Source of the DNA: an uncultured Verrucomicrobiae bacterium | Lineage (GTDB): Bacteria; Verrucomicrobiota; Verrucomicrobiia; Limisphaerales; UBA11358 | Reading direction: 5' to 3' | NCBI GenBank assembly: GCA_963711945.1 | Contig: CAVQGB010000005.1 | Coordinates: forward strand, 175,664-239,663 | DNA: 64,000 nt | Shown here: positions 2,197-56,587 of the stretch, piece after piece | Layout of the letters: every line of letters starts with the position of its first letter | How positions within the stretch are numbered: the stretch's first letter is position 1 | Made by a program: the position numbers and the translations under genes | The notes under the pieces: generated by a model | Database searches by the model: none | Told to the model about the DNA's origin: nothing | What the model saw: the letters and a program-made list of their open reading frames with translations, nothing else

Positions 2197-2597
2197 GCGC
2201 CCTTGGCAAGTTTATTCAGCTTTTCCACACAGGCCCGGAGCATGGGTTCGAGCTTTTCTTTGATCAGCGCAATTGCCTGTTGGGCAATGTCATGTTCATA
2301 CGTGTGGCTGAAAAGATTCCGGCTTTCCAGCGCCTCAAGCCATTCATCTACATCGGTCAGCAATTCCATCTCGAACGCCTTGTTGATGGTTTCTCGCGGA
2401 CTATTGACGGCATAACCCTCAAACGTGAGTTTGTCCTTCAAAGTCTTCCAGCAAAGCTCAAACGTGAATTCGTAGGTCTGAACCAGTCCGGCGACTTCAA
2501 GTTCGTTGTATTCGTCCTGATCGCAGGCATCTTCCAGCCGCTTGAACGCCTTGTTCAGATTTTGCAGTCGTTGTATCCAGCGGTTTTCGTTGCTCAT
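2193..2597 (-). CDS. HEPN-domain protein (HI0074-like nucleotidyltransferase substrate-binding family), putative toxin partner of the MNT domain
   Basis: The internal ATG at 2597 of ORF 2193..2822 gives [24 protein letters not shown]...[12 protein letters not shown] (Rx4H HEPN motif). The ATGA overlap with the hsdM stop (2594-2597) supports this start. The upstream part of the tracked ORF is Arg-rich out-of-frame hsdM sequence. Confidence 0.8.
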
Positions 2598-8954: not shown

Positions 8955-9029
8955 TGGAGCCAATGGCCGGGATTGAACCGGCGACCGACGGTTTACGAAA
9001 CCGTTGCTCTACCGCTGAGCTACATTGGC
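8955..9029 (-). tRNA. tRNA-Thr (anticodon CGU)
   Basis: Minus strand folded by hand: GCCAATG TA GCTC AGCGGTA GAGC A ACGGT TTCGTAA ACCGT CGGTC GCCGG TTCAATC CCGGC CATTGGC T CCA. All four stems pair, the CCA is encoded, and the anticodon loop is TT-CGT-AA. Confidence 0.9.
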
Positions 9030-38498: not shown

Positions 38499-38737
38499 GG
38501 CTTACTTCATCGCCCGGGCGATGCTGTTCCACCAGGCGTCGTGCAAGTTCGGTGAGCGGAGCGGAGAATTCGCCTGCTGGCGGTTTTCACCGTCAGCTTG
38601 TCGCCGCCGACCTTGCCGATTTGCACCGCCGGCACGCCCATCAGTTTGGCGCGTTCCACGACTTTCACCGCGTCGAGCGGCTTTGCAACTGATGACGATG
38701 CGCGATTGCGTTTCGCCGAACAGCAGCGCATCCAATC

Positions 38738-38805
38738 GGTGGGGCGAGGCTCCTGACGAGCCGTCGTCCGCCTGCCCATCGGATCGCGAGGACGCTCGCC
38801 CCACC
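38738..38805. repeat. Palindromic repeat (GGTGGGGCGAGGCT...GACGCTCGCCCCACC family) inside purL
   Basis: GGTGGGGCGAGGCTCCTGACGAGCCGTCGTCCGCCTGCCCATCGGATCGCGAGGACGCTCGCCCCACC. Its termini are identical to the copy at 10428-10476. It is translated as SVGRASSRSDGQADDGSSGASPHR. Confidence 0.8.
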
Positions 38806-40457
38806 GATGACAAATCAATCGTCGCGCCAATCAGCCGCGGCGTCTCGCGGGCGACGAGCTGGCTGATGCAGCTTTCGGCCAGGCACACCGCCAGGCCGCC
38901 TTCGCTGCAATCATGCGCGCTTTTCACCACAGCCGGATTGAATCAAGCCGAGCAGCGTCGTGTGCAAGGTTCTTCGCCTGTTTCCAGATCGCAGCGCGGC
39001 GGCGTGCCGGTTTTCTTTCCGTGAATCGCCTGCAAATACGCCGAGCCGCCCAGACCGAGAATCGGGTCGGCTTTGTCCACGATTTCGCCGAGCAAAATGA
39101 TCGCGTCGCCCTCGTCCTTGAACCATTGCGTCGTGACGTGCTCCGGTTTTTCAATCAGGCCCACCACCACCACCGTCGGCGTCGGGTCAATCGGGCCGTT
39201 CGGGCTTTGGTTGTAGAGCGAGCAATTGCCGCCGGTGACCGGCGCGTTGAACGCCCGGCAAGCCTCGGCCAGTCCGCGCACGGATTCCTTGATTTGCCAG
39301 AACAACTCCGGCTTCATCGGGCTGGGCATGTTGAGATTGTCGGTCGTGCCCAGCGGCACCGCGCCGGAACAGGCCAGGTTGCGGCACGCCTCGGCCACCA
39401 CAATCTTCGCGCCTTCGTAGGGATCGAGATAAACGTAAGTGCCGTTGCCGTCCGACGTGAGGGCGATGAGTTTTTCGGGCGTGGATTTTGCCGCCGGCTA
39501 ATTCGGGCAGCGAATCGGTCTTGATGCGCAGCACCGCCGCGTCGCTGCCGGGACAAACCACCGAGCCGTCGCGCACCATGTGGTCGTATTGGCGGTAAAC
39601 CCAGTTCTTCGACGCGATGGTCGGCCACGCGAGCAGCTTCTTCAAATCGCCAGCGGCGATCTTGCGTGTCGGCGATTCCATCCAGCCGGAACGCGCGGAC
39701 TTCCTTCAAATACTCCGGCTCGCTGCGCCTCGCGCTGGTAAATCGGCGATTCGTCGGCAATTTTCTTCGCCGGAATGTCGGCGACAATTTTTCCGCCGTG
39801 GCGCACGACCATCCGGCCCGTGTCGGTGACGAATGCCGATTTCCGACCACGGCAAATCCCATTTGTCGAAAATCCGCTTCACTTCCTCCTCGCGGCCTTT
39901 GTGGACGATGATGAGCATGCGCTCCTGCGATTCGCTCAGCATGATTTCGTAGCTGGTCATGTTCGGCGCGCGCTGCGGCACCTTGTCCAGTTCGATTTCG
40001 ATGCCCGTGCCGGCGCGCGCGGCCGTTTCGCAGGTGGAGCAGGTCAAGCCCGCCGCGCCCATGTCCTGAATGCCCGCGACCGCGCCGGTGGCGAGCAATT
40101 CGAGGCAGGCTTCGCAGACGAGTTTTTCCATGAACGGATCGCCCACCTGCACCGCGCCGCGCTGTTGCTCGGCGGATTCCTCGGTCAAATCCTGCGACGC
40201 AAACGCCGCGCCCGCCAGGCCGTCGCGACCCGTGGCCGGGCCGACGTAGAAAACCGGATTGCCGATGCCCTTGGCCGCGCCGCGCGCGATTTGTTCGTGG
40301 CGCAGCACGCCGAGGCAGAAGGCGTTCACGAGCGGATTGCCTTCGTAGGATTTGTCGAAATAAACCTCGCCCGCGATGGTCGGGATGCCGAAGCAATTGC
40401 CGTAATGCGCGATGCCCGCCACGACGCCGGCAAACAGGCGGCGGTTGTTCTGAATCT

Positions 40458-40591
40458 GGGGAGCACACGCGCCCTCGCGTGTGGCCGACAACGCCCCGTC
40501 GTCGGCACAATGCCGCCACCGCGCGTTGCGTCTCGCGCGTGGGCGCGCTCGGCGCGGTTGATGAGGCGTCAACCGCCACAGCCGGGTCGGC
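40458..40591. repeat. ~134-nt palindromic element inside purL (related to the 10896-11086 element)
   Basis: GGGGAGCACACGCGCCCTCGCGTG...GGCTGTGCTCCCC. Compare GGGAGCGCACGCGCCTCGCGTG in the intergenic element. It lies between the conserved PurL segments SLRFGPI and [13 protein letters not shown], and the reading frame changes across it. Confidence 0.7.
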
Positions 40592-41059
40592 TGTGCTCCC
40601 CATTCCATTTCCGCATTCCGTGATCGGCCCAAACCGCAGCGAGTTCACCGCGCAAATCGGCCGCGCGCCCATCGTGAAAATGTCGCGCACGATGCCGCCG
40701 ACGCCGGTGGCCGCGCCTTGAAACGGCTCGACCGCGCTGGGATGATTGTGCGACTCGATCTTGAACGCGATGGCCATGCCGTCGCCGATGTCAATGATGC
40801 CGGCGTTTTCCTCGCCCGCGCCGACGAGGATTTTCGGCGACTTGGTGGGAAAGGTCTTGAGCAGCGGGCGCGTGTTTTTGTAGCTGCAATGCTCGCTCCA
40901 CATGACGGAGAAAATGCCCAGCTCGGTGTAGCTCGGCGTGCGGCCGAGGACTTCCTTGACATGGGTGTATTCCTCCGGCGTGAGGTTGTGCTTCGCGACG
41001 AGTTCGGGGGTGATGGCGGGTTCGGTCATGGCAAAACTTTTGGTTCTGAGTGAAATGAT

Positions 41060-41680
41060 TTACGCCCAGAAGGGAACGTATTCCGTAAATTTCTTGGACT
41101 TATTATCTGGGTTGGCTGGCTTGATTCTCTTAAGAGAAATCGCCTCCTGAATCAGATTAGAAACCATTGAGCGTTGCTTTTCGGGCATTTTCAATCGTTC
41201 TCGAAGTGATTTGTTTGTCATTGCACTGTGCAACATCAATGTTCCAATCTCCTGTCGTGACGCTTGCCGTGTTGTGCCACCAGAACGGATAAAGGCAGTC
41301 TCCAAACTTTTCCCACGAATATGAACCGGCTTGACCGAAGCTTCTGGAACATGAACGAACAACAGCGAAACGGATTCATAATCTTCCACTGCGTGATCCA
41401 GTGAAACAGATGGCTCAACGCCCTGCCGCCCAATATTCGCAAGTTGATTGATGGTTGTCTGAACTACTTCTTCTGATATTGCGTGCGGAATCCCTGAAGC
41501 ATCGACGCCATTTACCAAAAAGCCTCCACCGGGATAATTGGCGAGCGCAGACAAATGTTCTGCCAGCCGATTCTTGTCAGGCGACAATGCGGCCTTCCAG
41601 TCCAGTTCGTTCAACTCGTGCTTCGGTTGTTCGAGGCTGGCCTTCAGCAAACCCATCGCTCGGCTTACCCAGTTCTTCAT
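41060..41680 (-). CDS. AlbA_2/Schlafen-like putative DNA-binding protein (short form), low-GC insertion between purQ and purL
   Basis: LEQPKHELNELDWKAALSPDKNRLAEHLSALANYPGGGFLVNGVD...LLFVHVPEA...PVHIRG resembles the AlbA_2 domain. The C-terminal SLRERLKMPEKQRSMVSNLIQEAISLKRIK...YVPFWA is wHTH-like. The flanks are AT-rich. Confidence 0.5.
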   Translation of the reverse strand: MKNWVSRAMGLLKASLEQPKHELNELDWKAALSPDKNRLAEHLSALANYPGGGFLVNGVDASGIPHAISEEVVQTTINQLANIGRQGVEPSVSLDHAVEDYESVSLLFVHVPEASVKPVHIRGKSLETAFIRSGGTTRQASRQEIGTLMLHSAMTNKSLRERLKMPEKQRSMVSNLIQEAISLKRIKPANPDNKSKKFTEYVPFWA

Positions 41681-41773
41681 TGTGACGTTTTCAACTCAAA
41701 TAACAACAATCTTAAAATCAACAACTTAAGCGCGACATGCATTTTTAATTTAATTAAAAATTCCTGCTATAGC

Positions 41774-42484
41774 TCACGCCGCTTTCGCCGCGGTTTTCTT
41801 TTTCAGCGCGGCGAAGATGCTTTCGAAAATCCATTTGCCGTCGTCGCTGCCGAGCGCGAGTTCGCTGGCGCGTTCGGGATGCGGCATCAGGCCGGCCACG
41901 TTGCGGCGTTCGTTGCAGATGCCGGCGATGTTCTGCACCGCGCCGTTGGGATTCGCGGTGTCGGTCAGGTTTCCGCTGGCGTCGCAGTATTGCCAGAGGA
42001 TTTGGTTGTTGGCCTTGAGCTTCGCCAGCGTTTCTTCGTCGGCAAAATAGCAGCCTTCGCCGTGGGCGATGGGCACGCGGAGGATTTTTCCCGCCGGAAT
42101 CTGGTTCGTGAACGGCGAGTCGGGCGTGGCGGTTTTCAGGAAAATGTGTTCGCAGTGGAATTGCAAATCGCGGTTGCGGATGAGCGCGCCGGGCAGCAGG
42201 CCGGCTTCGGTGAGAACTTGAAAGCCGTTGCAGATGCCGAGGACGAGGCCGCCGTTGTCGGCGAATTGTTTCACGGCCTGCATCACCGGGCTGAACCGCG
42301 CGATCGCGCCGCAGCGCAGATAATCGCCGTAGCTGAAGCCGCCGGGCACGATGACGCAGTCGGCGTCGCCGAGGGAATTTTCCTTGTGCCAGACGTAGCG
42401 CGCGGAATGGCCGAGCAGCCGGACGGCGTGGATGGCGTCCTGGTCGCAGTTGCTGGCGGGAAATTGGAGAACGGCAAAGTTCAT
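41774..42484 (-). CDS. purQ: Phosphoribosylformylglycinamidine synthase glutamine amidotransferase subunit PurQ
   Basis: MNFAVLQFPASNCDQD...VPGGFSYGDYLR...GICNGFQVLTEAGLLPG...MPHPER (Cys-His-Glu triad context). Confidence 0.95.
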   Translation of the reverse strand: MNFAVLQFPASNCDQDAIHAVRLLGHSARYVWHKENSLGDADCVIVPGGFSYGDYLRCGAIARFSPVMQAVKQFADNGGLVLGICNGFQVLTEAGLLPGALIRNRDLQFHCEHIFLKTATPDSPFTNQIPAGKILRVPIAHGEGCYFADEETLAKLKANNQILWQYCDASGNLTDTANPNGAVQNIAGICNERRNVAGLMPHPERASELALGSDDGKWIFESIFAALKKKTAAKAA

Positions 42485-42577
42485 AGCGTTACATGTTACG
42501 ATCGAGTGACCGAAGACAGCAGAAGATGACGATCGACAATTCCATCTCTGCGCCTCTGCGCCATCTGCGGCTCAAGT

Positions 42578-42820
42578 TCATTCGATTTCCAGTTTGTAAT
42601 CTTCGATCACCGGGTTGCTCAAAAACTTGTGCGCCGCGTCGTTCAACGCCTGCTGCGCGGCGGCCTTGTCCGCGCCGGGCGCGAGGTCAATCTCGATGTA
42701 TTTGCCGATGTGGACGCCGGTGACGCCGCGTGTAGCCCATTTGTTCGAGGGCGTTCTGGACGGTTTTGCCCTGCGGATCAAGCACGGCCTTCTTGGGGTG
42801 ATGATAATTTTTGCTTTCAT
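42578..42820 (-). pseudogene. purS: PurS (FGAM synthase small subunit) with an apparent compensating frameshift pair
   Basis: The ORF is open (80 aa), but residues ~9-33 (PRRPCLIRRAKPSRTPSNKWATRGV) do not look like PurS. The adjacent frame reads PKKAVLDPQGKTVQNALEQMGYT, the conserved PurS segment. The ends MKAKIIIT and GVHIGKYIEIDL...NPVIEDYKLEIE fit PurS. Confidence 0.75.
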
Positions 42821-42927
42821 TCGCGCGCACGGAAGATTGCAAAAAATTCCGCCGCCGGGCGAGCAATTTTTGATTTTCCGCGCAACGAGCGTTGAATTTG
42901 CCCGCCGCTTGCGCCATTGTTCTGGTC

Positions 42928-44485
42928 ATGGCTGACACCAAACAAGCCGAGGAAACACCGGGCAACGGCATCGGCGCGGAACGCAAGGCGCCGGAACCCT
43001 GCACCATCGTCATCTTCGGCGCGAGCGGCGATCTGACGGCGCGCAAGCTGATTCCCGCGCTTTACCATCTGTTCAAGGACAAGCAGATGCCGCCGGCATT
43101 CCGCATCGTCGGCTTTGCGCGGCGCGAAAAGACCGACGAATCGTGGCGGCAGGAATTGCGCGCGGCGCTCGACCAGTTTTCCCGCACCAAACCCGTGGAC
43201 GAAAAGGTCTGGAAGGAATTCGCCGCGAACATGTTTTATTGCCAGGGCGACCTCACCGACGCCGCGGCCTACAAAAAACTGGAGGAACTGCTGACCTCGT
43301 TCGGCAGCGGGCCGTTGCGGGAAAACCTGCTGTTTTATCTCGCCACGCAGCCGAGCCAGTTCGGCCAGGTCGTCGAGGAACTGCATCGCGCCGGCGCTGC
43401 TGCACAAGGAGGGCGCCGGCTGGCAGCGCATCGTCGTCGAGAAACCGTTCGGCCACGACCTCGCCTCCGCGCACGCGCTGAACAACGAACTGACCCGCTA
43501 CGCCCACGAAAGCCAGGTCTGCCGCATTGACCATTATCTCGGCAAGGAAACGGTGCAGAACATTTTGATGTTCCGCTTTTCCAATTCGATTTTCGAGCGG
43601 CTCTGGAACCGCGAATCCGTGGACCACGTCCAGATCACCGTCAGCGAAAAACTCGGCGTCGGCGAGCGCGGCGGTTATTACGAGGAGGCCGGCGCGCTGC
43701 GCGACATGGTGCAAAACCACATGCTGCAGGTGCTTTCGCTCATCGCCATGGAACCGCCCGTGTCGCTCGAAGCCGAATCCGTCCGCGACGAAAAGGTGAA
43801 GCTGCTCAAATCCATCCGCCCGCTCACGCCGGACGATGTCGCCAAACAGGTCGTGCGCGGACAATACTTCGCCGGCGTCGTGAACGGCCAGCCGCGCCCC
43901 GGCTACCGGCAGGAGACCAAGGTGAAACCGGATTCCAACGTCGAAACCTACGTCGCGCTGAAGCTCTTCATTGACAACTGGCGCTGGAGCGGCGTGCCGT
44001 TTTATTTGCGCACCGGCAAAAATCTGCCGATGAGCGCCAGCGAAGTGCGGATTCAATTCCGTCCCACGCCGAACGTCCTGTTCGCCGCGCAATGCGGACA
44101 ACACCTTGACGCCAACGCGCTCACGCTGCGCCTGCAGCCGAACGAAGGCATTTCCCTGCGCTTCAACGGCAAGGTTCCCGGCATGAGCCTCGGCGTGCGG
44201 CCCGTGCGGATGCACTTCAGCTACGACGCCGAGTTCGGCGCCTACACGCCGGAAGCCTACGAACGCCTGCTGCTCGAAGCCATCGCCGGCGACGCGACGC
44301 TCTTCATCCGCCGCGACGAAGTGGAAACCGCGTGGCAGATCGTGGACTCCATCCGCGCCGGCTGGGACGGCAAGCCGCTGACGAACCGCGAATTTTACGC
44401 CGCCGGAACGTGGGGGCCGATTGCCGCCGACGATTTGCTCGCGCAACTCGGCCACGCCTGGCACGAGCCGCAGGTGATAAAATAA
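42928..44485 (+). pseudogene. zwf: Glucose-6-phosphate 1-dehydrogenase with one frameshift near 43396
   Basis: VIFGASGDLTARKLIPALY (NADP motif) lies in ORF 42892..43530. LLHKEGAGWQRIVVEKPFGHDL...RIDHYLGKE...EPP... continues in the frame of ORF 43553..44485. One extra G lies in GCCGGC-G-CTGCTG. Confidence 0.9.
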
Positions 44486-44498
44486 TTGCCGATCGCAA

Positions 44499-45243
44499 AT
44501 GAACAAATTTTGAACTGATTTCCTTCGCCAGCGCCGACGAACTGGCCCGCGCCGCCGCCGGCGCGTGGCTGGACGAAATCGAATCGGCCAATCGCGCGGG
44601 CAAAACGCATTGCGTCGCGCTTTCCGGCGGGCGCATCACGCAAAAATTCTTCGCCGCGACCGTCGAGCAGGCCAAATCGCGAAAACTGGGACGCGCACGC
44701 CTTCGCTCCGGCAAACGTCCATTTTTTCTGGGCGGACGAGCGCTGCGTGCCGCCGACCGACCCGGAAAGCAATTTCAAACTGGCGAACGAACTTTTGTTC
44801 GCGCCGCTGAAAATCCCGGCCAACCAGATTCACCGCATTCGCGGCGAAGATTCGCCTCAAGTCGCCGCGAAAATTGCCGAAGCAGAATTGCGCCGCGTTG
44901 TGCCACTCGAACAGACAATCCAGCCGGTTCTGGATTTGATTTTTCTCGGCATGGGCGAGGACGGCCATGTCGCTTCACTGTTTCCAGAATCGCCGCCGAA
45001 ATTTTGGACAGCGCTGTCCCGTTTCTGGCCGTCGAAAATTCGCCCAAGCCGCCGCCGAACCGGATTTCGTTGAGTTACGCCGCCATTGCCGCCGCGAAAC
45101 AGGTCTGGGTTCTGGTTTCCGGCGCTGGCAAGGAAACGGCGTTGCGCGAATCGCTGTCAGCCGGACGGCCAGACGCCGCTGGCGCGCGTCATCCGGTCGC
45201 GTTCCAGGACAAAATTTTCACGCGACATCCGACCATTGATTAA
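44499..45243 (+). pseudogene. pgl: 6-phosphogluconolactonase with several frameshifts
   Basis: Reading ATG AAC AAA TTT(T) GAA CTG... gives MNKFELISFASADELARAAAGAWLDEI if the T4 run at 44507-44510 is really T3. Later pieces are ...HFFWADERCVPPTDPESNF... and LIFLGMGEDGHVASLFP (ORF 44747..45073), then ...PPNRISLSYAAIAAAKQVWVLVSGAGK (ORF 45004..45243). Confidence 0.75.
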
Positions 45244-45376
45244 CGTGTAATCGCCAATTGGTTAAGTTGTGTCCAAATGGCTGATTTTGTTGGAAATGCG
45301 GCATTTGGCCAGGTAAAACGCCCATTGGCATCTGAAAAATTTTGTGAAATTTTTTTGAAAATGTTTGAACCTTTTC

Positions 45377-45567
45377 GGCGGCGATGCGTCTGATATAGTC
45401 GAGTGAAGATTTCGCTGTCCGTTTAGGGTTGGCATAGAGGTTTTGCTCGCGGCGCGGCTCGGACAGCGACCCCAAGTTGGTCGCGTCGCCCTTCTGAGCG
45501 CCTGGGTGAAGGCGTATAAACCTCGTCACCAAGAGAGGCCGGACGCAAGTCCGGCCTTTCGCTTTTC
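45377..45567 (+). ncRNA. Candidate structured small RNA or 3'UTR element ending in an intrinsic terminator (unidentified family)
   Basis: Long-range helices were paired by hand: GGCGAUGCG (45380-45388) with CGCGUCGCC (45482-45490), and CGCUGUCCG (45413-45421) with CGGACAGCG (45460-45468). There are further hairpins and a terminal terminator. No credible ORF covers the region. Confidence 0.3.
45537..45567 (+). terminator. Rho-independent terminator
   Basis: GGCCGGAC-GCAA-GTCCGGCC followed by TTTCGCTTTTC. Confidence 0.65.
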
Positions 45568-45621
45568 TGCGAATTCAGCATTGAATTGAAGCCGGCAGAA
45601 AAGGTTTAACATTTCCCACGC

Positions 45622-46631
45622 ATGAAACATCAGCTCGATTTCGAGAAGCCGATCATCGAACTGCAAAACAAGCTGGATGAACTGCGCGAGCACCCGGAAA
45701 AACATTCGCTGGGCATCAGCTTCGAGGAGGAAATCCAGCTCATCGAAAAAAAACTGGAGGAAACCCGGCGGCAGATTTTCTCGAACCTCACCGCCTGGCA
45801 GCGCGTCCAGCTCGCGCGCCATCCCAAACGGCCTTACACGCTGGATTACTTCAAGCAGGCCTTCACGGATTTTCAGGAATTGCACGGCGACCGGCTGTTT
45901 GCCGAGGACCGCGCGATGGTCGGCGGTTTTGCCAAACTGGGCGAACACCGCGTCATGGTCATCGGCACGCAAAAAGGCCGCGACACCAAGGAAAACATTT
46001 TGCGCAATTTCGGCTCCGCGCATCCCGAAGGCTACCGCAAGGCGCTGCGCCTGATGCGGCTCGCGAACAAATTCGGCCTGCCCATCATCACGCTCATTGA
46101 CACGGCGGGCGCGTATCCCGGCGTCGGCGCGGAGGAACGCCACATCGCCGAGGCCATCGCCGTCAATCTGCGCGAAATGACGCTGCTCGAAGTGCCCATC
46201 ATCGCCGCCGTCATCGGCGAAGGCGGTTCCGGCGGCGCGCTCGGCATCGGCGTGGCCGACCGCGTTTTGATTTTGGAGAACGCCTATTATTCCGTCATCA
46301 GCCCGGAAGGCTGCGCGGCGATTTTGTGGAAAGACCGCGCCAACGCCGCCAAGGCCGCCGCCGCGCTGAAAATCACCGCCAAGGATTTGCTCGAACTCAA
46401 ACTCGTGGACGAAATCGTGCCCGAACCGCTCGGCGGCGCGCACACCGATCCCGACGGCGACCGCCGCGAATTTGAAAACGCATCTGCTCAAGCATCTCGA
46501 AGAAATCCTCGCGCTGCCGGTCGCCGAACGGTTGAAACAGCGTTACGAAAAATTCCGCGCGCACGGGCATTTCATCGAAAAAGTCGAGCCGGCCGGAAAC
46601 GACCGCCGTTCCGCACGCCGCCGCCGCCTGA
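45622..46631 (+). pseudogene. accA: Acetyl-CoA carboxylase carboxyltransferase alpha subunit, frameshifted near 46456 (3' end uncertain)
   Basis: [21 protein letters not shown]...[12 protein letters not shown]...[20 protein letters not shown]...GGAHTDPD. The sequence then continues in another frame as [39 protein letters not shown]. Confidence 0.9.
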
Positions 46632-46636
46632 TCCAC

Positions 46637-47667
46637 GTGCTTTATCCGCTCACTTTTCAGCCGATTTTCAAGGAACGCGTCTGGGGCGGACGCGAACTGG
46701 AACGGCTTTACGGCAAAAAAATTGCCGCCCGGCAAGCCCATCGGCGAATCGTGGGAAATTTCCGACCGGCCCGGCGACGCCAGCGTCATCGCCAACGGCC
46801 CGCTCGCCGGAAAAAACCTGCGCTGGCTCATGGAAAATCACGCGGCGGAAATTCTCGGCGGCGCGAAACCGGCGGCGGCAGGACGCTTTCCGCTGCTCTG
46901 CAAAATTCTCGACGCGCGGGAAAAACTTTCGCTGCAAGTCCATCCGCCGGCGGGCAAAGCCGCCGAACTGAAAGGCGAACCGAAAACCGAAATGTGGTTC
47001 ATCGCCGACGCCGCGCCGGGCGCGAGCTTGTATGTCGGCCTCAAACGCGGCGTGACGCGCGCGGAGTTTGAGAAAAAAATTTCCGACGGCAGCGTGGCGG
47101 ATTGTTTTCATCGCATTCCGGTGCGCGCGGGCGACGCGATGTTTCTGCCCAGCGGCCGCGTCCACGCCATCGGCGACGGCCTGGTGATTTTTGAAATCCA
47201 GCAAAATTCGGACACGACCTACCGCGTGTTCGACTGGAACCGCGTCGGCCTCGACGGCAAGCCGCGCGAACTGCACGTCGCGCAATCGCTGGCGAGCATT
47301 GATTTCAACGACTTCGAGCCGAAGCTGGTCGGAAACCAAATTTGTCGCCGACGGAAAAATCCAAAAGCGTCCGCTGGTGAACGATCCGTTGTTCAACGTC
47401 GAAGCGTGGAAATTGAATTCCGGCGCGAGCGGTTTGTTGAAGCCGAAAAAATTGCAAATCGTCGCGGTGACGGCGGGCGAAATTGAAATCAAGAGTGGTT
47501 TGGAGCGGGGACGGCTCGTTCGCGCGATGCAGAGCTTGGAACTCGCGGGCGAGCCGCCCGCGCTCCTTTTGAATGCCGGGCAATTTTGTTTGATTCCGGC
47601 CAGTCTGGAGCGGACGGAAGTTCTGGCGCAATCAGATGCGGCATTGCTGCGCGTCGAGGTGAAATGA
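46637..47667 (+). pseudogene. manA: Type I mannose-6-phosphate isomerase with two frameshifts
   Basis: [30 protein letters not shown] | [16 protein letters not shown]...LSLQVHP...EMWFI...VHAIG... | ...KFVADGKIQKRPLV... The first shift sits in the A7 run at 46715-46721; the second is near 47330. Confidence 0.8.
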
Positions 47668-47757
47668 TTTATCCGTGAATGAACGCGAATTTGCTGAAAG
47701 TCTTTTCGCAACAATCAGCGCAATTCGCGGATTTAAATTCAATTCAGCGACAAATCA

Positions 47758-47785
47758 CCCGCCACTTGGCGGGCGCGGATTTTTT
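47758..47785 (+). terminator. Candidate rho-independent terminator after manA
   Basis: CCCGCC-ACTT-GGCGGG, then CGCGGA and TTTTTT. Confidence 0.5.
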
Positions 47786-47895
47786 GCCGTGTTCAAAAAA
47801 TGGCATTGCCCTGAAAATGCCGGCTACAATTCGCAGACTCGCGCTCCGGCGATGCAGTTGTTGGACTTGTGGCGCGTTCGCCGAATTGATTTACT

Positions 47896-48474
47896 TTGCC
47901 GACCATTATGAAGAGCAATAAAAAGGAGTTGCCACCAGCACAACGGGAAGCGCTGCTCAACGCATTGAAGGCCCGGTTTGAGAAAAACTTGAACCGCCAT
48001 AAAGGTCTGGATTGGGCCGGGGTGCAGACCCGGCTGGAAGCCAACCCTGAAAAGCTGTGGTCACTCAATGAAATGGAACGCACCGGCGGCGAACCGGATG
48101 TGGTGGTGCAGGACAAAAAGACGGGCGAATACGTTTTCTTCGATTGTTCCGAGCAAACGCCGTCAGGCCGCGTCAGCCTTTGCTACGACCGCGATGCGTT
48201 GGATTCCCGAAAGGAACATAAACCCAAGAGCAGCGTCATGGATATGGCCGCGGAAATGCGTGTGGAGGTTTTGACGGAGGAACAGTATCTCGAACTGCAA
48301 AAGCTGGGCGAATTCGACACCAAGCGGTCGAGTTGGGTGAAAACGCCGGCGGACATCCGAAGACTCGGTGGCGCGCTTTACTGTGATCGCCGCTACGGCC
48401 GCGTCTTCGTGGGCCACAACGGCGCGGATTCTTACTATAGCGGCCGGGGGTTCCGCGGTTCGCTAAAAGTGTAA
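47896..48474 (+). CDS. DUF4256-like protein
   Basis: ...LNEMERTGGEPDVVVQDKKTGEYVFFDCSEQTPSGRVSLCYD...KRSSWVKTPADIRRLGGALYCDRRYGRVFVGHNGADSYYSGRGFRGSLKV matches my recollection of the DUF4256 consensus. The ORF is intact. Confidence 0.7.
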   Translation: MPTIMKSNKKELPPAQREALLNALKARFEKNLNRHKGLDWAGVQTRLEANPEKLWSLNEMERTGGEPDVVVQDKKTGEYVFFDCSEQTPSGRVSLCYDRDALDSRKEHKPKSSVMDMAAEMRVEVLTEEQYLELQKLGEFDTKRSSWVKTPADIRRLGGALYCDRRYGRVFVGHNGADSYYSGRGFRGSLKV

Positions 48475-48810
48475 CGTTTCGTCCATGAAAACGTTTCAAG
48501 GATATCGGCTCGTCGCACCGGATGATTTGCACTGGCGGCTGTCCAACCTGATGAAAATTCCGAACGCGGATTATCTGATCCACGCAATCCTCCGCCCTGC
48601 CACCATCTCATCCCGCCGAACGGCCCGCCCAGTCCTCGGAATCGGAAAATTGCCTATTGATCCGCCGGATCGTCCTCTGGTAAGGTCGCGCCATGTTAGG
48701 TGAGCTAGAAAATCCATTTTCCCTCACCCTCGCGGCGCTGAAAACGCAGGGCGGGCAAAACACGCGCATCCAACCGTTCTTCAAACCACAGAAATCGAAA
48801 CATCGTCCCT

Positions 48811-50327
48811 ATGAATAAGCGAAGCCTTCTACTCACTTGCCTGATTCTCTCCGGCCTGATCCCGGGGAATTTAAGGTCGGAGCAAACGGCGGTCATCAAG
48901 ATTGATCTGAACCGGAAAATCGCGAAAGTGGACCCCAACATCTACGGCGGCTTTGTTGAGCCTATCCGCACCGTGGTCTATGGCAGCATTTACGATCCCG
49001 AATCTCCCCTGGCTGACACGAACGGGTTCAGGAAAGATTTTATCCAGCTCGTCAAGGACCTTCACATTCCCGTGGTGAGGTGGCCCGGCGGAAATTATGT
49101 TTCCGGCTACAACTGGGAGGATGGGATTGGCCCGAAAAACCAGCGTCCGGTCCGGCTCGACCTGGCGTGGCATCAGATTGACCACAATCAGATGGGCACG
49201 GATGAATATGCCAAACTTTGCGGCCTGATCGGGGCGGAGAATTTCGTCTGCATCAACGCCGGCTTGGGGACGCTGGATCAGGCGCAGACATTGGATTGAA
49301 TACTGCAATTATCCGAAAGGAACCTATTATTCGGACCTCCGGCGGAAGTATGGCAATGACACAACCCTTCAACGTCAAATACTGGTCGCTGGGCAACGAA
49401 ATTGACGGCCCGTGGCAGACTCGGGCAAAAGAATGCCGAAGACTACTGCAAATTTGCGCTGGAAGCCGCCGAAGATTATGCGGTTGGTGGACGGGAACGT
49501 GAAATTCATCGCCGACGGCGCGTCCAATTACAAGCCCGATAACAAGTGGATGGATTGGAACGATTATGTGTTGCAGCACATGGCGGGCAGCATTGATTAC
49601 CTCTCCGTTCATCGCTACTGCCAAAAGGTGCTGAACGGGCGACACGAAGCTTCCCCGGCATGATGTTCTGGGTCTGGACATTGATCAAAAGATCAACATG
49701 ATCAAAGCCCAGATCGAGAAGGCGATGATGAAATCCGGTTCAAAGAGCCCGGTGTATATCTCCTTCGACGAATGGTCCGGTTTCGGCCGAGGCGCCAATT
49801 TGACAGGATCCCTCATGCTGGCTCAGCACCTGAACTCCTTTATCCGCCATGCCGATATCGTCAAAATGGCGAATATCACGATGCTTTCCAGCCTGGTGGG
49901 AAATTCGCCCGATGGCGATTACAAGAACGCGCTGTATCAGGCCTTTTATCTGTATTCCAAAAACGCGCGGGGCACCGCCCTGGATGTGAATGTCGCCAGC
50001 CAAAAATACAGCAATAAATCATTTAATGACATCCCCTATCTGGATGTTACCGCTGTATTCAACGACTCCTCCAAGTCCCTGGTGGTCAATGTGGTCAACC
50101 GGCAGTGAAACAAATGCCATCGGCTTCCGAGATCGTGTTGCAGAGCGGGGAATTCACCGGTCGCGCCACGGTGAATGAGATCAACGGTGAATCCGTCACC
50201 TCAACGAATACGAAGACCCAGGAAGGCGTCGTCCATCGTCACCAAAGAAGTTCAATTTAGCGGAAACAATATCAAATGCAGCTTTCCGGCACATTCATTT
50301 ACACAGATGCTGATCCCCGTCAAATAG
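48811..50327 (+). pseudogene. GH51 alpha-L-arabinofuranosidase-like glycoside hydrolase, multiple frameshifts
   Basis: Signal peptide, then ...NIYGGFVEPIRTVVYGSIYDP...VVRWPGGNYVSGYNWEDGIGP...; then [13 protein letters not shown] (catalytic GNE), ...ISFDEWS..., and a C-terminal beta-sandwich piece. The pieces are spread over ORFs 48811..49299, 49218..49502, 49412..49663 and 49698..50108, with a tail to 50327. Confidence 0.8.
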
Positions 50328-50386
50328 GCCAACTGACGCAAACCGCGGACGTGATGGATCAACCGTGGTGATTTTTTTCTGGCGCG

Positions 50387-50414
50387 CCAATCGCAAATCG
50401 TAAATCGTAAATCC
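50387..50414. repeat. Heptanucleotide tandem repeat (NAAATCG, 4 units) immediately upstream of the zinc-ribbon gene
   Basis: CCAATCG CAAATCG TAAATCG TAAATCC, ending 5 nt before the ATG at 50419. Confidence 0.75.
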
Positions 50415-50418
50415 CGGT

Positions 50419-50923
50419 ATGCCGATTTACGAATTTGCCTGTCCGAAGTGCCGCCGGATTTTCAGCTTCCTCTCGAAGCGCGTGAATCCCGACCGCACTG
50501 CCCGTCTGTCCCAAATGCGGCAGCAAGAAATTGTCCAAGCAGGTCAGCCGATTTGCAATGAGCAGGGGATTGAAGGAGCCGGCTGCCAAAACCGACGCCG
50601 ACACTGGAGACGAACCGCCCATGCCGGATTTGGACGACCCGCGCGTCGAACGCGCCATGATGGAAATGGAGCGCGACATGGAGCACTGGATGAAAACAAT
50701 CCGAAGCACATGGCGCACATGATGAAGAAAATGAAGGATCTCATGCCGCCGGCGCACGATGCCCAAGGAACTGGACGTGGCCATCAAGCGCCTCGAAGCC
50801 GGCGAAGACCCGGAAAAAATCGAGGCCGACATGGGCGACGTGCTCGGCGATTTCATGGGCGGCCCGGAAGGCGGTGCGGGCGGCGGCGGTTACACGAAGG
50901 ACAGCGGGTTGTATGATTATTGA
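50419..50923 (+). pseudogene. FmdB-family zinc-ribbon protein, frameshifted
   Basis: MPIYEFACPKCRRIFSFLSKRVNPDRT..., then in another frame CPKCGSKKLSKQVSRFAMS... (second CxxC), and an acidic tail ...GDVLGDFMGGPEGGAGGGGYTKDSGLYDY in a third frame. Confidence 0.7.
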
Positions 50924-51001
50924 GCGGCGTAGCGGCGTCTCGGCAGAGCGTCCGCAAATCATAAAAATGCGTGCACTCTGCCGAGACTGCCGCTACGAAT
51001 C

Positions 51002-51489
51002 ATGGCCCACATCCACGAAAAAATTGATTTCACCGTCGCGATCTTTGTCGTTCACGACGAGAAAGATTCTGCTCATCCACCATCGCAAGCTGGACAAATG
51101 GCTGCCGCTGGGCGGCCACATCGAACTGGACGAAGACCCGGAGCAGGCCGCATTGCGCGAGGCGAAGGAGGAAAGCGGCCTCGACGTGGAACTGCTCGGC
51201 GAACGTCCGCCCACGACTTCGCCCGGCACCCGCGCGCTCATCGCGCCGCGCTTTCTCGACATCCATCGCATCAGCGACACGCACGAGCACATCGGCATGA
51301 TTTACTGGGCGCGGCCGCAAAGCGTGGCCGGCGGCGCCCGTCGACCGCACGCATCCAACTCTCGCCGCCGCGGAGCATCACGACATTCGCTGGTGCACCG
51401 CCGCAGAATTGGACAAACTCGTTCCGCCGATGACCGACGCGGTAAAATGGTATTGCCGCAGGGCCATCGAGGAAATTTCCGCCCGGTGA
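51002..51489 (+). pseudogene. Nudix hydrolase, frameshifted
   Basis: MAHIHEKIDFTVAIFVVHDEK | ILLIHHRKLDKWLPLGGHIELDEDPEQAALREAKEESGL (Nudix box GX5EX7REUXEEXGU) | ...IRWCTAAELDKL... Confidence 0.75.
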
Positions 51490-52726
51490 CCTGCGCCTCA
51501 AAAATTCCGCGCCGCCTGCTACACCATCGAGGGCATCAATTCCTTCGCGGTGGTGATTTATTTCAATTACCTCTATTTTTTCTTTCGCGACCGGTTTGGC
51601 TTCAGCGACAGCCAAAACCTCGCTGCTCGCCGCGCTGATCGGCTTGATTTACACGTTGGCCTCGTGGCAGGCCGGCAAATTCGCGCGGCGTTTCGGCTAT
51701 TTCACCGCGCTGAAAATCGGCTTCGGCCTGATGGCCGCCGGGCTGGCCGCCGGCTCGCAGCTGCACTCCGCGTCGGCGCCAGAATCGTCACCGCCTGCGT
51801 CGACCAACATCGGCATGTGCTTCATCTGGCCGACGCTCGAGGCGCTGGTCAGCGAAGGCGACACGCCCGAGCGCGTCCCGCATGCCGTCGGCATTTACAA
51901 CATCACCTGGGCGGCGACCAACGCCGCGGCGTTTTTCATCGGCGGCACGCTCATCGAAAAATTCGGCTTCAAAGCATTTTTTATCTGCCGCTCGCGTTCG
52001 TCGTCGGGCAATTCGGCCTGGTGTTCTGGCTGGAAAAAATCCATGCACGACCTGCCGCCGGCGCCAGCGGAGACATAAACCGCCGCCGCCCGATCCGAAC
52101 CGGCCGTCGCCCGCCCGGGCGAAAACATTTTTGCGCATGGCATGGCTGGCGAATCCGTTCGCCTACATCGCCATCAACACGTTCATCGCCGTGATGCCGG
52201 GCATCGCCGCACAAATTTCAGCTTTCGCCGATGTTCGCCGGATTTGTCTGCTCGCTCTGGTGTTTCGTGCGGCTGGGCGCGTTCGTCGTCCTCGTGGCGC
52301 TGGACCGGCTGGCATTACCGTTTCCGCTGGCTGGCGACGTCGTTCGCGCTGCTCATCATTGTCGTTCGCGGCCATTCTCATCTGTCGCCGAACCTGGCCG
52401 TGCTGATCGTGGCGCAAATCTTTTTCGGCGGCGCCATCGGCCTGATTTATTACTCGTCGCTGTTTTACTCGATGGACGCGAGCGAGACCAAGAGCGAGCA
52501 CGGCGGCATCCACGAGGCGGCCATCGGCGTGGGCAACTGCGTCGGCCCGGCGGTCGGCGCGGCGTCGCTGCAATTCTTGCCGCAATACACGAACAGCGGC
52601 GCGATTGCCGTGAGCGTGCTGTTGCTGTGCGGATTCGGCGGGTTGCTGGCGATCTGGAAGACCGGCGAAGTGATTTTGACACAAAGGCGCAGAGGACACC
52701 GAGATACTGGCGCTGCGCCACTATAG
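51447..52726 (+). pseudogene. MFS-type transporter, multiple frameshifts (5' end approximate)
   Basis: Hydrophobic pieces lie in three frames: ...CYTIEGINSFAVVIYFNYLYFFFRDRFGFS, ...LAALIGLIYTLASWQAGKFARRFGYFTALKIGFGLMAAGL..., and ...VAQIFFGGAIGLIYYSSLFYSMD... Confidence 0.55.
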
Positions 52727-52757
52727 TTTTCTCTGTGCCCTCTGTGGCTCTGTGGCT
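52689..52757. repeat. Nested hairpin repeat overlapping the MFS stop codon
   Basis: GCAGAGGACACCGAGA ... TGGCGC-T-GCGCCA ... TCTCTGTGCCCTCTGT (13/15 complementary), followed by CTCTGTGG repeats. Confidence 0.6.
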
Positions 52758-52870
52758 AAACTGATTTTATGTCCGCTGAACAACAATTGACAATGCTGGA
52801 ATTGACTTAATTGCGCTGCGTATTAGCGAATGCCGAACCCGAACGCAAAACTCTCGACGACCGCGCCAAG

Positions 52871-54876
52871 ATGACCGAACTGGAGCGCATCCGGCATTCC
52901 GCCGCGCACGTCATGGCCACCGCCATTCTGCGCCTGTGGCCGGACGCGCAATTCGCCGCCGGGCCGCCGGTCGAGAACGGCTTTTACTACGACGTGGACT
53001 TGCAGCACCGCATCTCGCCGGAGGATTTCCCGACCATCGAGGCCGAGATGAAAAAGGAGATCAAGGCGAACCACACCTTCGAGAAAATCGTCGTCACGCG
53101 CGAGCAGGCGCTGAAGGATTCGCGAGAGCGGACGGCTCGGCGGCCTGACCGAGCGGCCGGGCAATCCGAGCAAGTTCAAGATCGGCAACCTCGAAGCCAT
53201 TCCCGAAGGCGAGCCGATCACCTATTTCAAGAACGGCGATTTCATTGACCTCTGCGCCGGGCCGCACGTGATGCGCACCGGCAACATCGGCGCGTTCAAG
53301 CTCACCAGCGTGGCCAGCGCGTATTACAAGGGCGACGAGAACAACCCGCAGCTCCAGCGCATCTACGGCACGGCGTTCAAGAACAAGACCGAGCTGGACG
53401 AGTATTTCAAGATGCTCGAGGAGGCCAAGCGCCGCGACCATCGCAAGATCGGCCAGGAGATGGGGCTGTTCGCGATTGACACCGAATACATCGGGCCGGG
53501 CCTGCCGCTGTGGCTGCCCAAAGGCACGGCCATCGTCGAGGAACTGGAAAAGCTGGCGAAGGAAACGGAATTCGCCGCCGGCTACGTGCGCGTGAAAACG
53601 CCGCACATCGCGCAAGGAGAAAATGTATCTAACGTCCGGCCATCTGCCGATTCTTTACGCGGAATCAATGTTTCCGCCGATGAGGCTACAGTTTGAAGGA
53701 AAGGACAAAGCCGAGAGACAATGCGCTTGAAACTGGCCAAAGACGAATACGAAAAGAATTGGATATCAGGTTACTTAGATTCCGCGACAACTGATGACCG
53801 AACGATTTTCAGAATCAAGAAGCTTGCTAACAACGCGAAGTCATACAAGACAGCAGCTTGCCCGAGACGAAGTCTTGGCAAGGCCGAGAAAGATCTCGAG
53901 GCAGAGCGCTATTACCTCAAAGCCATGAACTGCCCGCATCATCACCGCATTTTTGCGGCGGAGCCGCGCAGTTACCGCGATCTGCCGTTGCGGCTGGCCG
54001 AATACGGCACCTGCTACCGCTACGAGCAGTCGGGCGAATTGTTCGGCCTCATGCGCGTCCGCTCGCTCAACATGAACGACGCGCACATCTATTGCACGCC
54101 GGAGCAGTTCGCCGCCGAGTTCAACGCCGTCAACGAAATGTATCTGAAGTATTTCAAGATTTTCGGCATCGAGAAATACGTGATGCGCTTCAGCACGCAC
54201 GACCCGTCGCGCCTGACCGGCGACAAGCAAATTCGTCAACGAACCGGAATTGTGGAAGCAGACGGAGGACATGGTCCGCAAGGTTTTGATTGATTCGAAG
54301 ATTCCCTACGTCGAGGTGCCGAACGAGGCGGCGTTTTACGGGCCGAAGATTGACGTGCAGGTCTGGAGCGTCATCGGCCGCGAATTCACGCTGGCGACGA
54401 ACCAGGTGGACTTCGCCGTGCCGCGAAAATTCGGCCTGGTCTATCGCGACAAGGACAACACGGACAAGACGCCGCTGTGCATCCATCGCGCGCCGCTGGG
54501 CACGCACGAGCGGTTCATCGGCTTCCTCATCGAGCATTACGCCGGCAATTTCCCGCTCTGGCTCGCGCCGGAGCAGGTGCGCGTGCTGACCATCGGCGAG
54601 GAGGAGCCGCTGGTGAATTACGCCAAGGCCATCGTGCAGCGAACTGCGCGCCAACATGGTCCGCTGCCGAAGCGATTTCACGCACGAACAAGATCAACGG
54701 CAAGATTCAGGAAGCCGAGCAGGCGAAAGTCCACACCATGCTGGTCATCGGCGGCCGCGACATGGACGCCGGGAACGTTTCCGTGCGTCTGCACGGCAAA
54801 GGCAACCTCGGCGCGAAGCCGAAGGGCGAAGTCGTGGCGGACATTCTGGCGAGCGATCAAAGAGCGAAGAAAATGA
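52871..54876 (+). pseudogene. thrS: Threonyl-tRNA synthetase (no TGS domain), with about 5 single-base frameshifts plus a 173-nt insertion
   Basis: MTELERIRHSAAHVMATAILRLWP...GFYYD (editing domain), ...DLCAGPHV..., ...DHRKIGQEMGLF..., MNCPHHHRIFAAEPRSYRDLPLRLAEYGTCYRYEQSGELFGLMRVRS (class II motifs), and ...HRAPLGTHERFIGFLIEHYAGNFPLWLAP... The pieces are spread over ORFs 52811..53248, 53268..53696, 53721..54293, 54250..54876 and 54477..54905. Confidence 0.9.
53707..53889 (+). mobile_element. 173-nt low-GC insertion in thrS bounded by a 10-nt direct repeat (AAAGCCGAGA / AAGGCCGAGA)
   Basis: The direct repeats lie at 53707-53716 and 53880-53889. Deleting 53707-53879 joins ...GGA AAG GAC | AAG GCC GAG AAA... 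and restores MFPPMRLQFEGKDKAEKDLEAERYYLKAMNCPHHH in one frame. Confidence 0.45.
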
Positions 54877-54901: not shown

Positions 54902-56488
54902 ATGAAAACCGACGGGGGTGAGGCAATTCGGATAAGGGTGATTTGGAAGGCTTGCTTGTATTTGGGGGTTTCGGCGTTTGTTTTCTTTCTGGTCTTTTGC
55001 AATCTGGACGGGCGTTTGTTTTGGGGCGACGAGGCGGAGACGGCGGTTCTTGCAAAAAACGTCTTGAAGTTCGGCATCCCAAAAGTTGACGACGGGGTCA
55101 ATCTTGTCACGTTCAACGGAGGCCAGCTCGATGCGAGCGCGGGCGGCATCTGGACGTGGTCGCCTTGGTTGCAGGAATACATCACCGCCGGGTCGTTCGC
55201 CATTTTCGGCCCGACGACGTGGGCGGGCCGCGCGCCATTTGCCCTGATCGGATGGTTGGATGTGGTTTTGCTCGGCGTCGTGGCGTGGAAAATCCACCGG
55301 AGCCATCGCGTGGCGCTTGCGAGCATGATCTTGATGGGCACCTCGGAAATTTTTCTGCTGCACACCCGGCAATGCCGCTACTACTGGATATCAGTCCTTG
55401 GGGAAATTCTGTTCGTCTGCGGCATCCATCAACTTTTCACGCAAAAGCGGCGGGGCATCTGGATCGCGGCAGCGGCCCTGATTCTGCAATTTTACAGCAA
55501 CTACATCATCGCGGCGGCCAACATCCCGGCGCTGATCGTTCTGGCCTGGATGTTGCGCACACGGGGCAAACGCGCCGTGTTGGACGTGGCCGTGATTCCG
55601 GGTGTCTTGCTGGCCGCAGCGCTGCCCTGGCTGGTTTATGCGCATCCGTGGGTTCAGGCACACGCGGTTGGCGGGGAAAATATTTTCACGAAGGCGTGGT
55701 ATTATTTGAGGGAGTTCAATTTTCATTTTCTGCCACTATGTTTTCTGTTGTTGCCGCTTCTTGGCTGGATTCCGGTTCGCGGGGGCGGGCAAAAAAACGG
55801 GCTGGAGGTTGTGCCGCCGTGGGAAAGATTTGCGCTGGTCCTGCTCCCGTTGTATCTGGCCGTCATTGTGATGGTTCCGGGCGTTTTTCTGCGTTATCTG
55901 CTGCCCCTGTTGCCGGTTGCGTGCCTATTGGCGGCCGGGTGGGTGTTTCGCCATGTCAGATGGCGCGCGCTGGCGTTCGCGGTGCTGGCCGTTCAGTGCA
56001 TAACCAATGCGTTTCCCATCGCAACCGCCTATCCCTTTAGGGAATTTCACCAGCTTCGCAGCCCCTTGCTGGGATATGTGGCCGGCATCACCGAACCTTA
56101 CGAGGACCGTTTCACCGACGTGCTGAAGTTCTTGAATGAGCAAAGCCATCCTAGCGAGACCATTTTGACATGGGATCCGGAACTTCCCATTGTCTTCTAC
56201 ACCCAGCTCAAGGTCATTGACGCCCGCTTCACTGGCACGGCGGCGATGTCCCGGTTGCCGGACTGGATTTTGCCTGAAAGCGCTTCGAGCGTCCTGAAAG
56301 TGATGCCCGTCACACTGCCGGATTATTGTGAATCACATTATGCGCCCATTGCTCTGGATGTTCACGATTCGGCCAGGGGCGACAATTATCCCGAACCCGA
56401 TTACCACCGAGGCCAGAGCACCCCGAAACGCGCGGCCTTTGTCATTTACAAGTTGAAAACCGGCGCGCAGGAAAAGACGGCAGATTAA
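54902..56488 (+). CDS. GT39/ArnT-like membrane glycosyltransferase
   Basis: 528 aa with about 11 TM helices. The N-terminal GRLFWGDEAETAVLAKNVLKFGIP... resembles the acidic motif of GT-C glycosyltransferases. The C-terminal domain is soluble. Confidence 0.7.
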   Translation: MKTDGGEAIRIRVIWKACLYLGVSAFVFFLVFCNLDGRLFWGDEAETAVLAKNVLKFGIPKVDDGVNLVTFNGGQLDASAGGIWTWSPWLQEYITAGSFAIFGPTTWAGRAPFALIGWLDVVLLGVVAWKIHRSHRVALASMILMGTSEIFLLHTRQCRYYWISVLGEILFVCGIHQLFTQKRRGIWIAAAALILQFYSNYIIAAANIPALIVLAWMLRTRGKRAVLDVAVIPGVLLAAALPWLVYAHPWVQAHAVGGENIFTKAWYYLREFNFHFLPLCFLLLPLLGWIPVRGGGQKNGLEVVPPWERFALVLLPLYLAVIVMVPGVFLRYLLPLLPVACLLAAGWVFRHVRWRALAFAVLAVQCITNAFPIATAYPFREFHQLRSPLLGYVAGITEPYEDRFTDVLKFLNEQSHPSETILTWDPELPIVFYTQLKVIDARFTGTAAMSRLPDWILPESASSVLKVMPVTLPDYCESHYAPIALDVHDSARGDNYPEPDYHRGQSTPKRAAFVIYKLKTGAQEKTAD

Positions 56489-56503
56489 TATGATTGGCGC
56501 CGC

Positions 56504-56587
56504 GTCCGTCTGCGCGGCAAAGGCAACATCGGCGCGAAGCCGAAGGGCGAAGTGGTGGTGGCAATCACAAAGCGGCGGGCATGGTGA
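56504..56587 (+). other. Remnant duplicate of the thrS 3' end
   Basis: 56504-56561 matches 54784-54841 at 53/58 positions by hand alignment. It reads VRLRGKGNIGAKPKGEVVVAITKRRAW-stop, against thrS VRLHGKGNLGAKPKGEVVADIL... Confidence 0.7.

Follow-up and report, generated by a model that had tools for sequence, protein, structure and literature searches.

What has become of the gene for threonyl-tRNA synthetase (ThrRS) in an uncultured Verrucomicrobiae bacterium, and is it interrupted at all? The DNA considered here, hereafter the window, is the whole stretch of 64,000 nucleotides (nt) analysed from contig CAVQGB010000005.1. Its thrS gene (52811..54876, + strand; identified by homology, tblastn and frameshift-aware alignment) encodes a threonine--tRNA ligase without an N-terminal TGS domain, is frame-broken as assembled and contains a block of lower G+C content (GC) at the ends of which stands a short direct repeat. 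An earlier note, made from the sequence alone, had taken this block for a small non-autonomous insertion with a target-site duplication. Comparison with related sequences leads us to a different answer: the block is very probably a native, lineage-specific insert of ThrRS whose frame has been broken by indel errors of sequencing or assembly, and thrS would be an ordinary and almost certainly functional gene. The block would represent the middle of a fast-evolving, lineage-specific coding insert in the catalytic domain, which in relatives is predicted to fold into an arm of two antiparallel helices; the direct repeat would not be a target-site duplication but would reflect, at the DNA level, a K-A-E-R/K motif that the two helices share at their base; and the frame breaks would belong to some 16 kb of low-accuracy consensus with dozens of single-base errors across it, three of them within the block.

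As a description of the sequence the earlier note holds. The repeat copies AAAGCCGAGA and AAGGCCGAGA lie at 53707-53716 and 53880-53889; the 173-nt block (53707..53879, + strand) is indeed AT-richer, with a GC of 45.7% compared with about 60% in the rest of thrS and 58% in the window; the upstream thrS frame closes at TGA 53728-53730, four codons past the first repeat copy; and the frame repair obtained by deleting 53707-53879 was reproduced, giving ...MFPPMRLQFEGKDKAEKDLEAERYYLKAMNCPHHH. Any deletion of 3n+2 nt across the TGA would 'restore' the local frame in the same way, such that this restoration is non-specific, and the one-base frame offset that had been singled out, although present, is but one of at least nine frame changes in thrS.

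The alignment of orthologues that had been proposed as a check for the presence of the block placed an insert at exactly this site, between ...SMFPPM and (E)RYYLKAMNCPHHH, in all 120 of the best orthologues and in 78 of 80 species-level Verrucomicrobiota genomes. In the window the insert spans 53683..53909 (+ strand), between ...ESMFPPM and YYLKAMNCPHHH, and is predicted to be a two-helix hairpin of which the 173-nt block is the central part. Insert length in the orthologues ranges from 12 to 257 residues, whereas approximately seven residues (e.g. MELEGEK) occupy this position in other phyla and in the solved ThrRS structures. The site falls between residues 324 and 325 of Staphylococcus aureus ThrRS (1NYQ), in a surface loop of the catalytic domain just before the strand with the zinc-binding Cys (MNCPHHH), and on both sides of it the match to the solved structures is residue for residue (motifs MFPPM and MNCPHHH). 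Set against the enzymes of S. aureus (1NYQ) and E. coli (1QF6), the insert resembles the lineage-specific insertion modules of aminoacyl-tRNA synthetases in being an in-frame surface addition to a conserved class II core.

Within this variable position the window insert belongs to a 78-residue family (P0065, P0039, P0001, P0117, P0059, P0115 and P0119) that starts with xLxxEGKDKAER and ends with AAEKDLExD. It aligns with the inserts of P0065 and P0039 (KDKAERELHLKIAKEKYKKK... / ...AAEKDLESDRYY), with local alignment scores of 150 and 133, respectively, compared with 40 or less for unrelated alleles. Insert GC is below that of the flanks in 60 of 78 genomes (mean 6 points, up to 21) and Verrucomicrobiota ThrRS inserts are rich in K, E, D and N, such that the low GC is probably a consequence of the K/E/D/N-rich arm. 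AlphaFold2 applied to P0065 predicted insert helices at residues 288-313, 317-322 and 327-356 with a predicted local distance difference test score (pLDDT) of 92-97, i.e. two long antiparallel helices and a short linker helix, and the window's own allele would be expected to form a helical arm of this kind. Our literature search found no paper describing the Verrucomicrobiota ThrRS insert.

The direct repeat can be extended to 11 nt, 10 of which are identical between 53706..53716 and 53879..53889 (both + strand). Copy 1, CAAAGCCGAGA, codes for (D)K-A-E-R at the start of helix 1, where KDKAER is conserved in P0065, P0039, P0001 and P0059; copy 2, CAAGGCCGAGA, codes for K-A-E-K at the end of helix 2, where relatives have AAEKDLE or AAERELE, such that the equivalent places in relatives read KAER and AAE(K/R). 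With these related motifs at the base of each helix, the repeat would reflect a pseudo-symmetry of the protein. At the nucleotide level, 55 comparable imperfect 10-mer pairs spaced 100-300 nt apart were counted in the 2-kb thrS region and approximately 43 per 2 kb elsewhere, and 7% of shuffles gave at least one such pair inside a box of 50 x 45 positions around the block ends. The direct repeat at the block ends is at chance level and it matches a motif found at both insert ends in relatives; it is therefore probably not a target-site duplication.

The earlier note had also offered, as its alternative, a lineage-specific insert that had lost a single base, and this proved to be close: a native insert with sequencing error is what we favour, although the block requires three breaks and not one. 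Frameshift-aware alignment to P0065, P0039 and the closest intact relative, L054 (contig CAVRPQ010000006; thrS product P0081, 683 amino acids), placed the first break at 53719..53720, where a two-base remnant codon 'CA' stands between ...KAER and MRLKLAKDEYEK. The second, one extra base, maps to 53781..53787 and the third, a two-base remnant at the 3' edge of the block (...ARDEVLA / AEKDLEAERYY compared with ...AWDEVLAAERELESDRYY in P0039), to 53878..53881, both positions being approximate (all three on the + strand). The reconstructed reading is then ...KDKAER | MRLKLAKDEYEKNWISGYLD | PRQLMTERFSESRSLLTTRSHTRQQLARDEVLA | AEKDLEAERYY..., with the bars marking the breaks. In pairwise alignments assessed against shuffles the middle of the block matched P0039 (z 4.7) and P0065 (z 3.7) in the frame of 53680 only; in the frame chosen in the earlier note z was below 0 against both. 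The first 20 or so codons of the 58-codon frame-0 reading given there do match relatives, but its middle matches in the other frame. As assembled, the insert thus has no uninterrupted frame and requires three breaks, and at least six like breaks occur in the conserved parts of thrS.

A stitched thrS query showed 80-87% identity at 100% coverage to Verrucomicrobiota ThrRS proteins of 660-705 amino acids, and the frame path along the gene, from three-frame translation, tblastn with orthologues and frameshift-aware protein-to-DNA alignment, was 2>0>1>0>1>0>1>2>0>1. L054, which has 92.8% nucleotide identity to the window thrS on both sides of the insert, served as the reference for indels. By comparison with L054, thrS carries seven extra single G/C bases (53122, 53612, 54228, 54637, 54667, 54683 and 54851), none in a homopolymer, and lacks one base at 54674. 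The frame is broken by an extra G at 53122 and at 53612; by a variable patch at 54201..54228 with a net +1 shift, made up of small indels at 54201-54222 and the extra C at 54228; by four single-base indels at 54637..54683 (an added C at 54637, 54667 and 54683, and the base missing at 54674) that give two net frame changes; and by an extra G at 54851, just ahead of the stop codon (all on the + strand, by alignment to L054). This amounts to roughly one single-base indel per 200 nt, mostly G/C insertions. Followed through its frames, thrS contains zero in-frame stops, the corrected ThrRS outside the insert is 88-96% identical to orthologues and the ratio of non-synonymous to synonymous divergence (dN/dS) relative to L054 is 0.18.

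Truncated or out-of-frame thrS genes were also encountered in other public assemblies (P0127, P0144, P0171 and other short ThrRS fragments on long contigs), and the insert of P0127 looks as though an L014-like insert had been read out of frame; assemblies may commonly contain frameshift errors near the A-rich thrS insert.

The frame breaks of thrS are part of a stretch dense in frameshifts, 38500..54870, that takes in purL, zwf, pgl, accA, manA, GH51, NUDIX, MFS and thrS and was delimited by split Pfam profiles and by tblastn with the open reading frames (ORFs) of relatives. In purL (38.5-41 kb) AIRS profile positions 2-74 and 67-111 lie in different frames and a further AIRS domain in a third; in zwf the G6PD_N profile runs from 1 to 139 in one frame and from 134 to 183 in another; in pgl the Glucosamine_iso profile is split 53-151 / 157-210 between frames; and in accA ACCA positions 2-286 of 310 are in one frame with the remainder of the gene in another. 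The manA gene and the GH51 arabinofuranosidase gene are fragmented between frames, and housekeeping genes on either side of 43-53 kb are split in this manner. Directly upstream of thrS, the NUDIX and MFS genes each occupy at least three frames by tblastn, whereas in relatives both are intact (158 and 393 codons, respectively) in the same NUDIX-MFS-thrS order. From 54.9 kb on, and for most genes before 38 kb, matches to Pfam are in a single frame and mostly full-length. A hidden Markov model of codon-position GC recovered several of the thrS breaks; elsewhere it was too crude for frameshift counts, so Pfam coordinates were used. The approximately 16 kb between 38.5 and 54.9 kb are probably a low-accuracy assembly segment: the housekeeping genes are broken solely by single-base indels while their proteins are conserved, which argues for a locally unpolished or low-coverage consensus.

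Three further features of the window were recorded. At 2597-4198 (- strand) lies hsdM, for a type I restriction methylase, in which the N6_Mtase profile is split 2-66 / 62-310 near 3.56 kb, either through another indel error or through a genuine frameshift. The sole RNA gene found in the window is a tRNA-Thr with anticodon CGT at 8955-9029 (- strand). Lastly, a 59-nt repeat (54782-54840 / 56503-56561, 54 of 59 positions identical) duplicates the thrS 3' end around an ORF for a 528-amino-acid membrane protein (54902-56488); the second copy still reads VRLRGKGNIGAKPKGEVVVAITKRRAW followed by a stop, and the related locus L038 has two extra partial thrS 3' copies, such that the thrS 3' end looks like an integration or rearrangement site.

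Indel errors in unpolished or low-coverage long-read or hybrid assemblies create false pseudogenes, and the breaks described above would be errors of sequencing or assembly rather than real mutations. Like such error-rich assemblies, this stretch has clustered single-base indels that split conserved genes and no nonsense codons; unlike them, its clean indels are mostly G/C insertions outside homopolymers. The latter point is among several that weigh against our interpretation, as insertions of this type, locally clustered, need a particular assembly history. Proof of the errors from raw reads or from a second, independent assembly of this organism was not found: a back-translated LAKDEYEKNW pattern was unmatched in metagenome contigs, the best genome and protein relatives were other species, and a protein search with the insert alone returned zero candidates, a 202-amino-acid query returning fragments only and no closer insert. 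A profile hidden Markov model of nine 'KDKAER' inserts matched the N-terminal 13 residues only and left the middle of the block unplaced in any frame; the family profile is too variable, and the three-break reconstruction therefore rests on two relatives, with breaks 2 and 3 approximate. The AlphaFold2 model of P0065 is poor overall (mean pLDDT 58, shallow alignment) and only its insert segment was used. Finally, a natural short allele exists in L053, whose insert of 19 residues, MQLSLEGKDKGEKGSETDL, has exactly the length of the product of the deletion considered above, which implies that the arm has been gained or lost as a unit in evolution; about a transposon this allele says nothing.

If the frameshifts were instead real, thrS and its neighbours would be a pseudogenized region in decay, such as a copy that is redundant or was acquired horizontally, and the block would lie in a dead gene. 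Such decay would accommodate the concentration of the breaks in one stretch, rather than an even spread, and a locus that the duplicated thrS 3' end at 56503-56561 and the partial copies in L038 mark as recombinationally active; thrS backbones are, moreover, unusually alike between genomes without common neighbouring sequence. Real gene decay would, however, add many more substitutions than indels, whereas purL, zwf, pgl, accA, manA and thrS are broken by single-base indels only and thrS is without a nonsense codon. Amino acid conservation is intact, dN/dS is 0.18 and NUDIX-MFS-thrS is the normal chromosomal context in which all three genes are intact in relatives. We consider real decay unlikely.

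Less probable still is the proposal that the block constitutes a mobile element, small and non-autonomous, akin to the Rickettsia palindromic elements (RPE) or to miniature inverted-repeat transposable elements (MITEs), with a 10-nt target-site duplication. RPE and MITEs can lie in-frame in coding genes, are palindromic and occur in multiple copies. The block shares with them the position of a short extra segment in a permissive loop of an essential gene, and its 10/11 direct repeat, lower GC and the plausible protein left by precise removal would suit such an origin, as would the short L053 allele; but it is not palindromic, is single-copy in the sequences searched and has been passed on together with thrS. 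The block ends carry neither terminal inverted repeats nor a palindrome, the inverted pairs found in 53600-54000 lying elsewhere. By blastn no second copy of the block was present in the 64-kb window, and a blastn search with the 163-nt core found none in 80 related loci. The repeat, no better than chance, coincides with a protein motif conserved in relatives, and in translation the interior of the block is homologous to the P0065 and P0039 inserts. As for an empty site in relatives, the short allele of L053 exists, yet P0065 and P0039 are homologously filled and every orthologue examined has some insert.

The same loop does hold a real mobile element in other genomes, a fact that might be counted in favour of an insertion. 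An in-frame IS200-like Y1 transposase domain is present in the ThrRS loop of five protein clusters (P0015, P0023, P0054, P0060 and P0068); in the three that were scanned (P0054, P0060 and P0015) PF01797 scored 29-33 bits against a 23-bit cut-off and the HUH and Tyr motifs are kept. In L081 (3001-5508), which encodes P0054, two perfect hairpins of identical sequence with a 10-bp stem, GTTTCCGGCG-TCG-CGCCGGAAAC, flank the domain, and the matching 'empty' allele L083 (3001-4866; P0055) has one hairpin, translated as VSGVAPETS; for P0060 and P0015 the Y1_Tnp domain alone was shown. These alleles resemble IS200/IS605-type and repetitive extragenic palindromic (REP)-associated (RayT) Y1 transposases in having PF01797 with HUH and Tyr and, in L081, the hairpins; they differ in being translated in frame within ThrRS, an unusual arrangement. 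The element is, however, absent from the window: the associated hairpin, GTTTCCGGCG-N3-CGCCGGAAAC, was not found there at up to 3 mismatches, and the 173-nt block is too short for a Y1_Tnp domain. No paper on an in-frame Y1 transposase in ThrRS, nor on wholesale replacement of the insert, was found in our literature search.

Skipping of the block in expression, through a translational bypass from one repeat to the other or through excision from the RNA, can be set aside with near certainty: the matching GCC-GAG-A at both edges and the stop shortly after the first recall the matched sequences at both edges of the untranslatable gap in phage T4 gene 60, but the gap here is 173 nt and not 50, the TGA stands four codons beyond the repeat and not directly after a take-off codon, there is no hairpin or other unusual or stable RNA structure in the block (fold z -0.9 against shuffles) and no Rfam intron or ribozyme match to it at the gathering threshold or at E up to 1, homologous sequence is translated in frame in relatives, and at least six further thrS frame breaks would be left unexplained. 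Intron, ribozyme and bypass readings of the block were accordingly rejected.

Across the lineage, the ThrRS insert behaves as a replaceable cassette would. Pairs of loci with near-identical backbones were found to have inserts without DNA similarity (L036/L055, synonymous divergence (dS) of the flanks 0.11, insert z 1.7; L020/L025, dS 0.16, z 1.5), and pairs with more diverged backbones to have homologous inserts (L047/L052, dS 0.25, z 24; L065/L069, dS 0.29, z 18.6). L024/L048 likewise combine unrelated inserts with backbones of low divergence (dS 0.11-0.16 for pairs of this kind); in each of these loci the thrS insert lies at approximately 10.8-11.1 kb. In two of the three pairs examined, identity over the 90 nt preceding the insert was 0.83, compared with 0.96-0.99 further out, a dip that fits imported recombination tracts. 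Silent donor copies of insert alleles were found neither within approximately 10 kb of thrS in any locus nor in the 64-kb window. These patterns suggest wholesale replacement of the insert by recombination.

A separate observation concerns the backbones themselves: between the 22-kb loci L036 and L055 the thrS backbones are 95-97% identical in DNA and nothing else aligns in the 10 kb on either side, such that thrS in these loci is either unusually conserved at synonymous sites or mobile between genomes.

Hypervariable middles exchanged through conserved flanks are a feature of the flagellin central domain and of the target-recognition domains of hsdS. The ThrRS inserts resemble these systems in their conserved flanks, their non-homologous middles, an allele distribution that is uncoupled from backbone divergence and the dip in identity beside the insert; they differ in that ThrRS is a housekeeping enzyme of the cytoplasm, for which diversifying selection has no obvious cause, and the exchange mechanism here is putative. 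We would therefore raise only tentatively the possibility that the block represents a single allele of a hypervariable, cassette-like helical arm in the ThrRS of Limisphaerales-type Verrucomicrobiota, swapped wholesale, probably by recombination via the conserved flanks, in a loop into which Y1-transposase and hairpin elements would also insert in frame. If so, the window allele would have been acquired as a unit, and the impression of something 'foreign' would be right in evolutionary terms while the gene itself was uninterrupted.

The locus carries a caution, as what looks like an interrupted essential gene is most plausibly an assembly artefact here, and the error-rich region from 38.5 to 54.9 kb is therefore unfit for calling pseudogenes, recoding or mobile insertions. 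It also draws attention to a highly conserved housekeeping enzyme whose surface arm gives way to unrelated sequence over very short evolutionary distances: where the solved structures and other phyla have their short loop, the Verrucomicrobiota enzymes show such replacement at a backbone dS of 0.11-0.16, and some lineages have a complete tyrosine transposase there in frame. If confirmed, this would raise the questions of what selects for diversity in ThrRS and of how selfish DNA survives in essential genes without splicing.

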